This document shows positions 30,001-36,000 of a stretch of DNA of 64,000 bases, in pieces. The position numbers and the translations under genes were made by a program. Numbering within the stretch: the first letter of the stretch is position 1; each line of letters starts with the position of its first letter. Source of the DNA: Negaprion brevirostris (taxonomy: Eukaryota); the NCBI GenBank assembly GCA_030324005.1, contig JARDVH010000193.1, forward strand, positions 85,806,684 through 85,870,683. The letters are read 5' to 3'. Under the pieces are notes generated by a model that was given only the letters and a program-made list of their open reading frames with translations, did no database searches and had not been told where the DNA came from.

Positions 30001-33000
30001 TGAGGGAGGGAATTGCAGGATTTTGATCCACACTGTGAAGCAATGATGATTTATTTCCAAGTCAGGATAGGGGGCAGCTTGGAGAGGAACTTGCAGGTGA
30101 TGGCGTTCCTATTTGTCTGCTGCCCTTGTACTTCTAGACGCAAGTGATCGTGGGTTTGGAAGATGCTGTCTAAGGATCTTTGGTGAATTGCTGCAGTGCA
30201 TCTTGTTGATGGTACACACTGCTGCTACTGAGCGTTGGTGGTGAAATAGGTGATCAGTTGAAGGAGTGGCTGAGTGCCAATCAAGCAGGCTACTTTGTCC
30301 TGGGTGGTGTCAAGCTTCTTGAAAGTTGTTGGAGCTGTACTCATCCAGGGAAGTGGGGAATATTGCATTATACCCCTAACTTGTGCCTTGTAGATGGTGA
30401 ACAGGCTCTGGGGAGTCAGGAGGTGAGTTAATCAGTACTGATCTGTTATAGCAGCTGCAATGTTTATGTGGCTACGCCAGTTACTGTTAGAAATGGCTGT
30501 TGTAATATGTTTTTCAGGGACTGTGACATGATATCACCAGAAGGAAGTGTGTTGTACAATCCAGTCCTAGTTTCACTTTTGCTTTTAAGCAGAGCGCACA
30601 CACTCAGCACTGCTACTGATGCCTTCAAGCTTTCTGAGCACGTCTAACTGTCCCCATGTGTCTAGTTTAAATCATAGAAACTGAGAATCCCTACAGTGCA
30701 GAAGGAGACCGTTCAGTTCATAGTGTCTGCACCAATCACAAACCCACCCAGGCCCTATTGCCATAACCCCACATATTTACCCTGCTAATCTCCCCGACAT
30801 TAAGGGGCAATTTATCATGACCAATCTCACACACCTTTGGACTGTGGGAGGAAACCAGAGCAGGCGGAGGAAACCCACACAGACTCGGGGAGAACATGCA
30901 GTCTCTGCATAGACAGCGACCCCAGGCTGAAATTGAACCCAGGTCCCTGGCACTGTGAGGCCACAGTGCTGCCAAATCAACCCACTCCACGCATCTTGGT
31001 TCCTGTGGGAGGAAACTGGGGCACCCGGAGGAAACCCACGCAGACACAGGGAGAACGTGCAAACCCCACACAGACAGTGACCCAAGCTGGGAGTCGAACC
31101 CGGGTCCCTGGTGCTGTGAGGCAGCAGTGTTAACCACGGTGTCGCTCACAAATAAATGAACCCACAACATGTTTATCCAATTCCTTTTAGTGATCATTAT
31201 AAAAGCAGTGATCACACCCAAAATGTTGATAGTGGGGGATTCAGCGACGGCAATGCCCTTGAACGTCCTGGGGCAATGGTTAGATTCTCTCTTATTGACA
31301 ATAGTCATTGCCTGGCACTTGTGCGGCATGAGAGTTTCTTTCCGCTTATCAGCCCAACCCTAAGTGTTGTCCAGGTCCATCTACATTTGGACATGGGCTG
31401 TCTCAGCATTTGAGGAGTGGCGNNNNNNNNNNNNNNNNNNNNNNNNNNNNNNNNNNNNNNNNNNNNNNNNNNNNNNNNNNNNNNNNNNNNNNNNNNNNNN
31501 NNNNNNNNNNNNNNNNNNNNNNGATGAAGTCTTTTTAGCTATGTACTTTTTACTTTTATTACTTAGGAATAGCTATTAGTTAAATATGTAATGTTATACC
31601 TTTAAGTGAATGTCACTGCCTTAACTTTGGCACGAGTCACTTTTCAGTACTTAAGTTATATGTATCTTATATAGAATGTGTAATTTTGTACCTTTGTAAA
31701 ATTCAAAATGCACCATTCTGTATAATTTGACAAAATGACAATGAGAGGGACAGACACCTTAAGTGGGCCATTCCAAGGACAAAGGGAAATGACCTTCACC
31801 CTTGAGAAACCAATTAGAAGCTAATCATCACATCTTAAACCAATCAAGGCCTGATTGCAAACTGCACAAGGCAACCAGGAATCAGTAATCAGTAACAGCA
31901 CTGATCACGGACATGGGTTGTGGTTTGGAAAGTGTTGAAAAGCAGAAGCTTTGGTCTATGCAGTGCATTGAATATGAAACTGAAGACTGCTTGTCAGTTG
32001 CTTGGAGCCTTAGGCAAAATTGGGAAGCAAGAGCCATGTTGTACCAATAAATTTGCTGCCTCGCTTTGTTAAATATCGGGGTGGGGAGTTTTCCGCTCCT
32101 GCTTTTGGTGACAGAGGTGGAAAGTCCTGAGAGAGTCCCAGGAATCTACAGCAGGGAAAGCTGGTGACTTTGTTGCTGTTTTCTCCATCTGCTGCATCAA
32201 AGGATTGCAGACAGACCCAATACAAGAGATGCTTGTTCATTACCCTTTAAATAAGGTTATAATTATGGAATAGTAGCATTAGTTTGCACTTAAGTGATGG
32301 TGAGTAGTCTCATAACACCAGATTAAAGTCCAACAGGTTTATCTGGTAGCACGAACTTTTGGAGTGCTGCTCCTTCATCAGGTGAGTGCAGGATTTGTCT
32401 CACAAATATGGCATATATAGACACAAATTCAATTACAAGATAATGGTTGGAATATGAGTCTTAACAGGTAATCAAGTCTTCAAAAGGTGCAGACAAGATC
32501 AGGTTCTGCACACAAGGACAGCCTCAACCGGGATCTGTAATCCCCACAACTTGAGCGCTTGCAAAATTTCGCTAACTGTCCTGGCTTGAGACAATTCACA
32601 CTTCTTGGAGCACTGCTGATTCATTTTTAAAATTTTTTTTAAAAGAAAGAAAAAAAGTGTAAACTTTCCTCTAGGTTTATTGGGTTGGGAGGTTCATCAA
32701 AAACTGGTTTGACCTTATCACCTTTGACAACATTGTTCAAGCCTTTGCTTCCACCAGAATCCAAGTAATGTGTATTGCTCACCAAAGTGTGCATCCCTAG
32801 AATGGCTGCAAGGTCACAGAGTTCTGTATCTGTTGCACTGGTCAAGGCTTCTTCCAGTTCTGGACCCAGGGTCATTTTCTCTTCCACACGCTGTTCTGCA
32901 GGTTTCTGCTTAAGTATCCATAGCTTTCCTTTTTTTCTCCCTATGAAAGGCACATAATTCTCCCTGTCCTTGTATTCCAATGCCTCTTTCTCCAAGAATG

Positions 33001-36000
33001 CTAGAAGCTGATCTCTATCAAAGGGGCCAGATCGGGTTTTGACAGTCTGGTCCTTCTGACAATATCCTGCTGGCAGCAGTGAATGCTCTGGATCCAGTTC
33101 CTCAAGGGCAGTTTTCAACTGTTTCAATTCTTCCTCGCTAAGTTTGCCAAGAAGCTTCTCATCAATATCCTTGTACTTCTCCAGGTCCTTTTTGAACGGC
33201 AGCGCCATCTCTTCAGTAACAGAAACTTGCAATCAATTAATCTGCAGGAATCTAACAATCCAATCTGTAACCAGACGTGTAGCTTTTGATCAGGGTGACA
33301 GCCCTGGTTATGCAGGGGAGACTCACCCTTGGAGCCTGTCAGCGAGAGTGGGGCCTAAAGCGGGAACCGTCTCCCAGATTCCCCCAACTTAGTGACCAAC
33401 TCCCTCAGTCCCACACACACCGCGCCGAGTGGACACGTAGGCACTCAGCACAATATCCAGCCCGAGGGGGAAGGGATCCTGCTCAGGCTTCATGCCCTTT
33501 AAAGACAGGTTAAAAAGCTCATGCTACCAAATAAACCTGTTGAACTTTAACCTGGTGTTATGAGACTACTTACTGTGCTTACCCTAGTCCAATGCCAGCA
33601 ACGTCACATAATATTTAAAGCCAGTTGGTGAATTAGCTACAAGTTTTACCACCATGCTTAGCATGCATTTAGTATCCCTGTCCGATCACCTTTCCTATGT
33701 ATGCATGCAAAACTATTCTTACTGCAGTATTTAGGTTTTGCTTCATGTGGTAAATCAGCATTTCAGGCACAATTTTAAATGGATGACTTCAGCTTTCTGC
33801 TTAGCTCTTGAAATGTCATTAGCATACTAATTAATAAGCAGTGATTTTAGTCAAGTTCTTCAACATGAAAACTGCAACAAAAATAGAATGGTTTTAGATA
33901 AATGGATACAACCTCATCCACATTGTGCCAATAAAGAATTTGCTTGTTTATTTTGATAAAGTGGAATATCTCACCTGTATCTGAGATGCATGCAGATCCA
34001 TAGTGATGATATGATCTGCCCCAGCCACAGACAGCATGTTAGCAACCAACTTGGCTGAAATTGGAGCTCGACTCTAAAAATAAGATCAATTCAGCATTAC
34101 AATCAAATCTCAAGCGATGATATACATGTTATGATTTAAAAAAAATCAATTCTTGGAAGTATTCTAAGCATCCACCCTAGAATTGTTTTATAAAAACACT
34201 AACACCATAAAGTACATTCCATTACAGTATTTTTGAGAGCATTTTCTTCAAGAAGTTACTATTGTCAATTTTAGTTCTCTAACTCTTCAAATACCATTCG
34301 GTGTCATACATTGTATGGGAAATGCAGCAAGTTGTGCCATTAGTGAATCAGTGGTGGCAAAAAAAATGTGTACATTACTGAAAAACCCATAGAACTACAG
34401 GAATCCCTACAGTGCAGGAGGCCATTCGGCCCATTAAGTCTACACCAACTCTGAGCATCTTACCCAGACTCACTCCCCTATCCCCATAACCTTGCGCACT
34501 TACATGGGTAATCCACTTAACCAACACAGCTTTGGACTATGGAGAAAACTGAAGTACCTGGAAGAAATGCACGCAGACATGGGAAGACTCCACAGGACTC
34601 TGGGAGCACACAGGAGCACCAGGACGGGGCACACATAGGTGGGAAGAAAAACTTTTAAACCCCACACACACGGCTACCCAAGGATCCCTGGTGCTGAGGC
34701 AGCAGTGCAAACCACTGTGCCAACCTTGTTAGTACCACAGATTAGACGCATGAATCTTCCTCATTTATATCCTGCCCATGTCTGATTCCAAATGTATGCT
34801 GGTGTACCCACCCACTGCATAACACATCCCTGTTCCCTCACCACTACCACCCCAGTATGAATTCTGCTGCCTGTTTCCAATTACTGGACATGCTTCATAC
34901 TTGTCCTTGTTGACCTATGTATCTCCTGTTCCATCAATTGCGCCTTTCAAAATTCTCATCTGTTGATGCAAATATGCTATAATCCTTGTGTACACAGACA
35001 GACAGGATATTATTTTAAGAATATCAATCCTACCTTGTCTTTCTTGTCTTGCCTAGCATAAGGGAAGCAGGGTATGACTGCAGTGACACGACAGGCTGAG
35101 GCAATCTTGCAGGCATTAATCATGATGAGTAACTCCATCAAATTGTCATTGATTTCTCCACAACCACTCTGTACAATGTAAACATCTTCACCTCGAACGC
35201 TTTCACCAATCTCCACACTATGGGGGCAGGGAAAGGAGAGGGAAATGAGAAGGAACATTGTGAATTTTTCTTTGTTAGGCAAAAGCCAGTGCATCACAGA
35301 CTGCAAGCAATGTATGTGAAATTCAATGCAACACTAACGTTGACACACTGGCAGGAGGAGATGGGAATATTTAAAAAAAGAATCAACCACTCAGTCTGCA
35401 GCAACCTAGAAAAACAGGCAAGCTGACTCAGGAAAACCAAAAAGCTCTTCAGCAGTATGCAGAAGAGGCCTGAGGCTTAATTTCAAAATGAGTCCTGGAC
35501 CTCTGGTTTCCAGTTCACTGCAAGCATACTGGCATTTTTGGACCTAGAATATTGGCTGACTTGCACATTAGTAATATTTTAAAAACTGTAAACTAAGTAT
35601 TTATTTGCAAGCTGACATTGTCCATGAGACCCATCTCTTTCTCCTGCAACTTATGCACTAAATTGCTGACCACCAAAGCTAGTCAAGTTCTCTTCAGGTT
35701 GTCTCTCTCTCCTATCACTCATCACCTCCAAAACTAGCAAATGACCCCATGGTTCTTGTATTCTATCTCCAAATCCCTTTTTCTCTTCAAAGTCCTCGAA
35801 AAAGTTGTCACCTCCCAGATCCAAACCCACCTTTCCCCAAGTACCTCATCTTTAAGAATGACCACAAGCCTCTCAAATTGTTTTCCCAAACTAGAAGCCC
35901 CATCTTAACACATAACTTAAATCTACATTTAAAAGTAGAAGTATTTATTAGTCACAAGTAAGGCTTACATTGTACTTTACTGTAGAAAAGTCTGCAAAGG

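Follow-up and report, generated by a model that had tools for sequence, protein, structure and literature searches.

A spliced tropomodulin-2 cDNA inside an arm of a Penelope-like insertion in Negaprion brevirostris

Structure of the locus

The window, the whole 64,000-nt stretch of Negaprion brevirostris DNA analysed here, carries a composite of Penelope-like and tropomodulin-2 sequences in the host-gene intron following a PRPS exon. This exon had similar scores for PRPS1 and PRPS2 and may belong to either paralogue. Positions in the element are given as x, where x=1 is window position 32496. The features are as follows.

32303..32496, minus strand: left arm, a tail-less end of a Penelope-like pseudo-LTR (x=1 to about 194-197)
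32500..32606, plus strand: first part of the right arm, covering x=-162 to -31 apart from a short internal deletion
32607..32624, minus strand: left edge of the inverted block, Penelope x=117-134 with the hammerhead core and stem II
32625..32657, no strand: linker of a T-run and an A-run, 33 nt, 91% A+T, between the cDNA end and Penelope
32658..33497, minus strand: spliced tropomodulin-2 cDNA, matching the parent exon by exon at exact splice sites
33498..33512, minus strand: right edge of the inverted block, Penelope x=-30 to -17/-16
33513..33609, plus strand: end of the right arm with a tail of roughly 40 nt (x=135-235)
33951..34073, minus strand: exon of the host gene, encoding residues 103-136 of PRPS1 or PRPS2

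On either side of the cDNA lies an arm of one and the same Penelope-like insertion, into which 873 nt of foreign sequence intrude. An earlier sequence-only reading had described an inverted terminus, a plus-strand piece, and a plus-strand tailed terminus, which we found at 32303-32496, 32500-32606, and 33513-33609, respectively; its view that the flanks are Penelope-like termini of one insertion, with the tail and duplication of L1 missing, was likewise borne out. The left arm was 87–91% identical to the 29 best genomic copies fetched and is joined to the right arm through about 3 filler bases. In natural copies, the sequence x=-162 to -31 shares the strand of the terminus and is found just upstream of it. 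A tail on a single arm has been described for Penelope-like elements (PMC3846280, PMC8557442). The left arm includes a putative minimal hammerhead motif. No target-site duplication was found around the composite, as previously noted, the longest common word being 4 nt.

The cDNA is a true retrocopy of tropomodulin-2. It is composed of a 210-nt 5′-UTR exon, exons 2–5, and the first 76 nt of exon 6, and the introns of the parent gene are missing. The exon 3-4, 4-5, and 5-6 junctions coincide with splice sites of the parent, a donor marks the end of the leader, and exon 2 appears as an exon in contigs of other species. Comparison with the parent upheld the earlier description of an intron-less, 3′-truncated cDNA, in which the break in exon 6 is followed by a T-run and then short A-runs, with no long poly(A). 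The cDNA had been drawn to about 33505; it ends at 33497, and 33498-33512 are minus-strand Penelope. The leader proved to be a real 5′-UTR exon of the parent, but the complete 5′ end claimed for it is not demonstrated, since it starts 86 nt downstream of another GTAAGT donor that lies within the CpG-rich promoter; the leader may represent an alternative first exon or else an extended exon that was truncated. The open frame covers 189 codons (33208-32639) without a frameshift, matches PF03250, and encodes a product 90% identical to shark tropomodulin-2. The cDNA differs from the parent by 4–7%, and by about 4% at replacement sites. This retrocopy is probably a dead pseudogene under neutral evolution. 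The arms (22/365, 6.0%) and the cDNA (10/257 at 0-fold sites, 3.9%) did not differ in age (p=0.27). No sign of function was noted in the copy. Its introns are removed as in an L1-type processed pseudogene; the intact 3′ end, the poly(A), and a 12–18-bp duplication around the cDNA are absent, and about 133 nt of the target is missing instead. Simple twin priming of the tropomodulin mRNA was rejected, as it requires a tailed 3′ fragment, which is absent here.

Aligned with natural copies, block 32607-33512 is inverted end to end, because 33498-33512 and 32607-32624 are minus-strand Penelope sequences that directly continue the opposite neighbours. The first reading overlooked this feature. Positions 33498-33512 correspond to the bases right after 32606 in natural copies, with 11–14 of 15 nt identical in 10 of 11 copies (by chance, 16 of 996,161 sample 15-mers reach 12/15). 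Positions 32607-32624 correspond to the 18 nt right before 33513, with 12–15 of 18 nt identical in all 11 copies (by chance, 10 of 994,934 sample 18-mers reach 15/18). The inversion breakpoints show a 2-nt TT/AA overlap and neither gain nor loss of bases. With the inversion undone, Penelope is collinear on both sides, and the cDNA lies in sense orientation to the right arm in place of about 133 nt (x=-16 to 116). The Penelope sequence beside it is discontinuous, with x=-17 on one side and x=117 on the other. No microsimilarity was found at either cDNA junction in comparisons with the parent and natural copies.

The inversion breakpoints lie only 15 and 18 nt beyond the foreign insert, and a hand estimate gave a chance of about 0.7% for such close breakpoints if they were random in the flanking Penelope DNA. 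This proximity indicates that the inversion was tied to the insertion, and its occurrence on both sides suits a DNA target on both sides. Staggers of 12–18 bp and target-side inversions have been reported for L1 (PMC11702581, preprint). Hammerhead cleavage was rejected as the source of the breakpoint, as the cut expected from the motif (x=142/143) is 8 nt off the inversion breakpoint and 25 nt off the linker junction; a flip by recombination between the arms was rejected on the reasoning that it would not yield a breakpoint at x=-31.

Natural upstream 33-mers reached at most 79% A+T, and none of 100 had the at least 90% exceeded by the linker. No convincing source of the linker was found in the window or in 150 kb around the tropomodulin-2 parent, where the best score was 35, compared with 31 in 65 other regions. 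This search covered the parent as far as it is present in the assembly, in which its last coding exons and 3′-UTR were not found. Ten A's before a hammerhead core had one match genome-wide, which was not in a Penelope copy.

In organism C, a relative about 8% diverged, the whole composite is present with the same junctions, and contigs span 32577-33119 and 33107-33542 over their full length. In organism F, both flanks are connected to the arms by contigs, and the exon 2/3 junction is likewise bridged. In organism D, one contig covers the last 23 nt of the tail and the right flank (33587-34397), and the left-flank contig fits to 32285, beyond which 38 further letters do not match; the contigs obtained over the cDNA all came from the parent's exons, none of them broken, and missing cover proves nothing. 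The pattern in organism D, which was left out of account, could reflect a cDNA-free Penelope, a deletion at a later time, or contigs that had been filtered out. Organism E, at a sequencing depth of about 2, was uninformative. Contig joints at the composite were swamped by other Penelope copies (15 listed, 634 more), and contigs from four runs of relatives included none with an intact arm at the composite site and no empty allele.

The Penelope-like family and other retrocopies

The genome contained 37,730 exact matches of one terminus 19-mer, and 105 of them read GTTATGAGACTACT. The sequence-only reading was correct that both flanks read GTTATGAGACTACT and in its reading of the copies at 6336, 16422, and 56526. 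As a mark of kinship, the variant is indeed rare, but it consists of one subfamily mark and one recurrent mutation; the subfamily of both arms accounts for about 9 of 100 termini. An uncommon A at x=182 is also found on both arms, and only 1 of 16 partner arms shares it in pairs chosen for this A. Neither flank was the closest relative of the other: of 154 termini compared, 27 (1 of 72 unselected) resembled the right arm more closely than the left arm does, and 11 (0 of 72 unselected) resembled the left arm more closely than the right arm does, in a tree-like comparison that rests on 57 nt, has little signal, and does not discriminate capture from nesting. Kinship of the arms cannot separate the two, because both predict one Penelope insertion.

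The tail-out, two-armed layout is the default of this family here, being observed in 17 pairs among 63 matches and in 59 other pairs overall. Therefore, the flanks prove one Penelope insertion, not capture. Target-site duplications of 7–13 nt were present in 28 of the 59 natural pairs, compared with 57 of 2000 shuffled pairs. None of these 59 pairs contained an mRNA piece; the spacer of L071, considered as a second mRNA capture, was another repeat family. Foreign DNA was present at the inner junction of the arms in L038, where it was local DNA, and in L219, where it formed a filler of 60 nt. The 5′ ends of natural copies fell at x=106-124 in 38 of 105 and at x=113-121 in 14 of 105. Only 7 of 105 termini reached x=0, and the arms of the composite are unusually long.

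The flanks agree with endonuclease-positive Penelope-like elements, whose single ORF with RT and C-terminal GIY-YIG lies upstream of the pseudo-LTR, in the ORF remains of their family and in their tail-out arms with an inverted, 5′-truncated second copy and a single 30–40-nt tail; the short target-site duplication is absent at the composite. The ORF remains, which precede this terminus in L184 and L037, were 75% identical to P0001, which has RVT_1 followed by GIY-YIG, both just under the cut-off; P0008 passed for RVT_1. None of seven Pfam results on the ORF remains of L184 and L037 was over the cut-off. With a minimal hammerhead description as reference (PMC4209133), the core CTGATGA, stem II, and GAAA were visible in natural copies. 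Rfam gave no match on the sequence, and the hammerhead monomer fold was no better than shuffles (z=-0.06).

LINE-type retrocopying is active in this genome. A search for further retrocopies bracketed by Penelope ends, as proposed earlier, found none among 26 other intron-less copies from four Pfam families; two touched Penelope DNA in other ways, and one had a 5′ inversion and an A tail. Tail-less, 3′-truncated retrocopies occur here without Penelope, and three of five PF01015 copies lacked the 3′ end. At L143 and L227, Penelope was inserted into or beside retrocopies.

Origin of the composite

We propose, with a probability of roughly 0.58, that the tropomodulin-2 cDNA was captured into an existing Penelope arm during double-strand-break repair, with deletion and inversion. 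The capture probably took place shortly after the Penelope had inserted, with LINE-type reverse transcription acting at the break. A Penelope-like element would first have primed at both cut ends, giving two arms as throughout the genome. The right arm, double-stranded and part of a 197-bp inverted repeat, would then have broken and lost x=-16 to 116. One broken end may have primed copying of tropomodulin-2 mRNA inside exon 6, through the A/T-rich linker. Finally, the bridging strand, consisting of the cDNA and the 15- and 18-nt Penelope overhangs, would have been cut out and religated in reverse; this flipping step is our own model.

Collinear Penelope on both sides and the deletion follow directly from nesting, but a single Penelope event would require two switches. 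We also counted for break repair the linker unlike natural Penelope junctions, the junctions without microsimilarity, unlike those of LTR template-switch retrocopies, the active LINE-type retrocopying with no retrocopy bracketed by Penelope ends, and the lack of mRNA pieces in other arm pairs. The partial spliced cDNA, truncated and without tail or duplication, matches spliced mRNAs captured at breaks (PMC4516963), and unusually long arms would have offered a larger target for a break. The microhomology with the target seen in the RMDR form was found at neither junction. Further observations weigh against break repair: the cDNA is sense to the arm once the inversion is undone, which nesting predicts half the time; the right junction, x=117, is in the zone where natural copies often end; the ages do not differ; no relative was shown to have the Penelope pair minus the cDNA; and the original Penelope duplication is not visible, though many natural pairs keep one.

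A tentative alternative is that one Penelope event with template switching made both arms and the cDNA. After priming at both cut ends, the enzyme would extend the right cDNA from the tail as far as x=117 in the hammerhead, acquire filler, jump onto tropomodulin-2 mRNA, copy it to its 5′ part, and return to Penelope RNA at x=-17, the product to be joined to a left cDNA stopped at x=1; the block would be flipped during second-strand repair or soon after. Switching always predicts the sense orientation, and it is consistent with the junction in the common stop zone, the similar ages, and the re-entry only 17 nt from the other arm's end, which resembles twin priming. Uptake of foreign DNA at inner junctions in L038 and L219 also favors it, as do the cutting and extension of both strands by the Poseidon protein in vitro (PMC11167929) and the origin of L1 two-RNA insertions by switching (PMC11702581). 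The A at x=182 common to both arms agrees with it but shows only one insertion, as nesting also predicts. Both switches would have taken place without microsimilarity, the linker is unlike natural Penelope junctions, the sole poly(A)-to-hammerhead match is outside Penelope copies, and neither the 26 retrocopies nor the 59 pairs gave a second case. The capture proposed earlier is a live rival, with the sense orientation and the stop-zone junction as new points in its favor, but its own arguments from the inverted termini and the kinship of the arms are weaker than first presented. It is less likely than break repair, but plausible, that a Penelope-like RT stalled at its own hammerhead, switched to a cellular mRNA and back, and thereby generated a spliced retrocopy in a vertebrate germline.

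Independent events are improbable, whether a retrocopy came first and received separate Penelopes at both ends or a Penelope flipped retrocopy-bearing host DNA. Penelope does insert into or beside retrocopies here, and the subfamily mark is all that is surely common to both arms. However, the Penelope sequences left and right of the cDNA are consecutive parts of one arm, base for base, a collinearity that largely refutes this explanation; neither host flank nor further tropomodulin sequence lies outside the arms, and both arms belong to an infrequent subfamily. A mis-join producing the cDNA or the inversion is very improbable: the assembly is gapped and parent exon 3 is misplaced on another contig, but the breakpoints have only 2 nt in common, contigs of organisms C and F support the composite and its flanks as described above, and the cDNA differs from the parent.

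If Penelope capture is true, vertebrates would have a little-known further source of gene copies, and Penelope would join L1 and LTR elements as a third producer of processed pseudogenes. Its signature, a cDNA in sense orientation and without tail that is attached at the hammerhead and lies between tail-out arms, would be searchable, and template switching would give a clue to the joining of the two cDNAs of one Penelope insertion. If break repair is true, the locus is a well-preserved natural mRNA capture at a break with a tied inversion, produced by known chemistry. Sharks and other non-mammalian vertebrates have tens of thousands of such Penelope ends.

Comparison with known systems

Canonical endonuclease-positive Penelope-like units (PMC8557442, PMC11167929) share with the composite the 5′-truncated and inverted copy, one tail, and a putative hammerhead motif; the composite differs in its internal foreign sequence and inversion. 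In Adineta vaga, Pen1 spacers and an NRPS gene between pLTRs were reported, with Penelope-mediated mobilisation of host genes (PMC3846280). In both cases, host gene sequence is framed by pseudo-LTRs, one inverted. The Adineta vaga gene keeps its introns and has whole direct pLTRs, an 8-bp duplication, and a known empty allele (PMC3846280), whereas the composite is spliced, truncated, and inside a broken arm without duplication, and thus lacks the features of the Adineta type.

LTR template-switch retroposition (PMC5131818) also yields internal, partial, 3′-truncated retrocopies flanked by discontinuous parts of one partly replaced retroelement. Its junctions have a median of 6 bp of microsimilarity, with filler of 2–26 bp at three junctions (PMC5131818). 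The composite differs in its Penelope-like rather than LTR carrier, the absence of microsimilarity, the 33-nt filler, and its single copy without signs of further spread. Non-canonical L1 insertions (PMC11702581) resemble it in their two-RNA cDNAs, adjacent DNA inversion, and 12–18-nt offsets. Those were obtained with induced L1 in human cells, whereas the partner here is Penelope sequence. RMDR (PMC4516963) and endonuclease-independent L1 insertions share with the composite a partial spliced cDNA with neither poly(A) nor its own duplication. Most RMDR cases have microhomology, which the composite lacks as does the endonuclease-independent kind; the composite further differs from RMDR in being a natural event in the shark germline, with a Penelope arm as target and a clean inversion added.

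Structure of the composite

Each Penelope piece was aligned separately to natural copies of the element, which was numbered (x) with x=1 at window position 32496. The features of the region were as follows.

32303-32496, minus, left arm, x=1-194 (alignment to natural copies)
32500-32606, plus, start of the right arm, x=-162 to -31 (alignment to natural copies)
32658-33497, minus, tropomodulin-2 cDNA copy with PF03250 and 90% protein identity to the shark tropomodulin-2 protein P0012
33208-32639, minus, open reading frame of the retrocopy, 189 codons
33513-33609, plus, end of the right arm, x=135-235 (alignment to natural copies)
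33951-34073, minus, exon of the host gene, either of the paralogues PRPS1 and PRPS2

The composite is a real structure, made by known kinds of process and more intricate than the sequence-only reading held: the layout of Penelope arms around the cDNA was borne out, but an inversion had been overlooked. Read on the minus strand, 33498-33512 (15 nt) corresponded to the bases following x=-31, matching ten of the 11 natural copies at 11-14 of the 15 positions and the remaining copy at 4, and 32607-32624 (18 nt) corresponded to the bases preceding x=135, matching all 11 copies at 12-15 of the 18 positions. The chance rates of such matches were 16 and 10 per million, respectively. Since these two terminal Penelope pieces lie on the minus strand, the block 32607-33512 is inverted; its breakpoints show a 2-nt overlap, with zero bases gained or lost. 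With the inversion undone, the right arm consists of x=-162 to -17, the sense cDNA, an A+T-rich 33-nt linker (32625-32657), and x=117-235, and about 133 nt of Penelope are missing at the cDNA site. The window also contained a direct repeat (35506-35828 and 36623-36945), about 1117 nt apart and 90-91% identical in two blocks.

The window lies on contig C193 of a 2.7-Gb genome whose nearest named proteins come from sharks. Searching this genome with the cDNA yielded six matches: one was the window itself, and the other five were exons of a single parent gene, whose splice sites coincided with the joints between cDNA pieces; the cDNA ended 76 nt into exon 6. The leader was a 5′-UTR exon, 86% identical to the parent, and began 86 nt downstream of another donor site within a CpG-rich promoter, so that completeness of the cDNA 5′ end is not established. 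The frame encodes the N-terminal half of tropomodulin and six linker-derived residues, and the divergence of the retrocopy looks neutral. The retrocopy is now in sense orientation relative to the host gene. Neither parent exon 2 nor the last coding exons could be located in the assembly; exon 2 lay in the interior of long contigs from sequencing runs X9 and X15 of two relatives. Parent exon 3 was located on a different contig (parent loci, C164:597270-691808 and C160:22974016-22974173 of assembly G000). These scattered and missing exons are likely scaffolding errors.

The Penelope family and kinship of the arms

The flank family was very abundant: a 19-nt pattern was matched perfectly at 37,730 places genome-wide. 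At other copies, remnants of an ORF upstream of this terminus matched proteins containing reverse transcriptase followed by GIY-YIG, and the ORF fragments themselves had no Pfam match above the cut-off. The family was assigned as Penelope-like because of these protein matches, the tail, and the hammerhead motif. ORF-end fragments without termini were also observed at window 30049-30433 and 53212-53273. Tail-out pairs numbered 17 among 63 matches in 80 stretches of 10 kb, a sample in which 15 stretches surround the parent gene and 3 are close to the window; the tail-out pair is the default layout of the family here. The outer ends shared a 7-13-nt word in 28 of 59 collected pairs versus 57 of 2000 shuffled pairs, and the shared outer word of the window's own pair was only 4 nt. 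Natural 5′ ends clustered at x=106-124 (38 of 105 in a genome-wide sample), and this pile-up suggests that reverse transcription often halts at the hammerhead structure.

The two substitutions shared by the flanks had been taken as a sign of common origin. The double variant was indeed rare (105 of 37,730, 0.28%); among the first 100 termini listed, 90 had neither change, 8 the second only, 1 the first only, and 1 both. In 16 pairs picked for one arm with both changes, however, 11 partners carried the second change and 1 carried the first, so the second change marks a subfamily and the first arises by recurrent mutation. A pair shares both about once in 16, which is at most evidence for a single insertion. 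Among 154 termini, many chosen for likeness, the flanks were not each other's closest relatives, and this kinship test cannot discriminate capture from nesting.

Age of the composite

Measured against a consensus built column by column from the majority letters in 70 copies of the subfamily, with CpG columns left out, the arms showed 22 differences in 365 sites (6.0%, interval 3.8-9.0), although this yardstick may overstate their age. Between cDNA and parent there were 10 differences in 257 0-fold sites (3.9%, 1.9-7.0) and 19 in 420 coding non-CpG sites; the p values for arms versus cDNA were 0.27 and 0.42, respectively.

Four of 22 listed sequencing runs from relatives were compared with the window. 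Organism C had 61 differences in 785 nt of the right flank, and its contigs covered 32577-33119 and 33107-33542, spanning both cDNA junctions and extending 30 letters beyond each inversion breakpoint, a single letter below the bridging threshold. Contigs of organism F connected each flank with its arm and, with 4 differences, spanned the joint between exons 2 and 3. It is therefore likely that the insertion, capture, and inversion are all older than the split at about 8%. In organism D, one contig lay over the tail end and right flank.

Origin of the composite

Nesting and template switching can each account for the composite, and we favor nesting, with a probability of roughly 0.58. A finished Penelope pair would have broken, lost 133 nt, and been repaired with cDNA. 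The inversion breakpoints lie 15 and 18 nt beyond the insert; on this model they would be where a single-stranded bridge ended that was excised and then reinserted reversed. Long inverted repeats are associated with breakage.

Template switching, in which the right cDNA would have halted at the hammerhead, whose expected cut is at x=142/143, and jumped onto the mRNA and then back, is the less likely reading. Orientation, junction position, and age together favor it by about ten to one, but the long arms and their collinear resumption, the nature of the linker, an inversion tied to the insert, and the lack of a second case weigh against it by somewhat more than ten to one; these weights were judged by hand and not computed.

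The search for other cases covered four Pfam families (89 matches, most of them fetched and read by eye) and gave 26 intron-less copies (5, 14, 6, and 1 by family). For 6 of the 14 in one family, the loci included no exon of a parent gene, and several flanks contained gaps. None of the 26 was bracketed by Penelope ends; one held a Penelope pair inside, and one adjoined an old terminus. Three of the five PF01015 copies lacked the 3′ end. No mRNA pieces were found between arms in those of the 59 pairs with spacers of at least 55 nt, which contained Penelope sequence, local DNA, other repeats, a gap, or 60-nt filler. None of the upstream 33-mers of 100 natural copies was as A+T-rich as the linker. 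Penelope-made retrocopying is judged less likely than not.

Several loci showed related arrangements. L227:1346-2270 (C163, about 10874100-10875000) is a retrocopy of the cyclophilin family whose 5′ part is inverted; it has a short A tail, adjoins an older Penelope terminus, and shows that twin-priming-type retrocopying occurs in this genome. At L143:1302-1500 (C110, about 19512100-19512300), the nesting is the other way round: a tail-out Penelope pair lies within an intron-less copy of the PF01248 family. The material between arms was a 201-nt spacer, mostly DNA copied from the same 3-kb locus, at L038:1877-2077, a 60-nt T-rich filler at L219:1414-1474, and part of a different common repeat at L140:590-713.

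A literature search covering few subscription papers listed no report of a Penelope-made spliced retrocopy. PMC11167929 describes cutting and extension of both strands, with two start sites accounting for the tail. In a rotifer, according to PMC3846280, Penelope termini mobilise an intron-containing gene and capture host spacers; the gene moved there keeps its introns, whereas the copy here is spliced.
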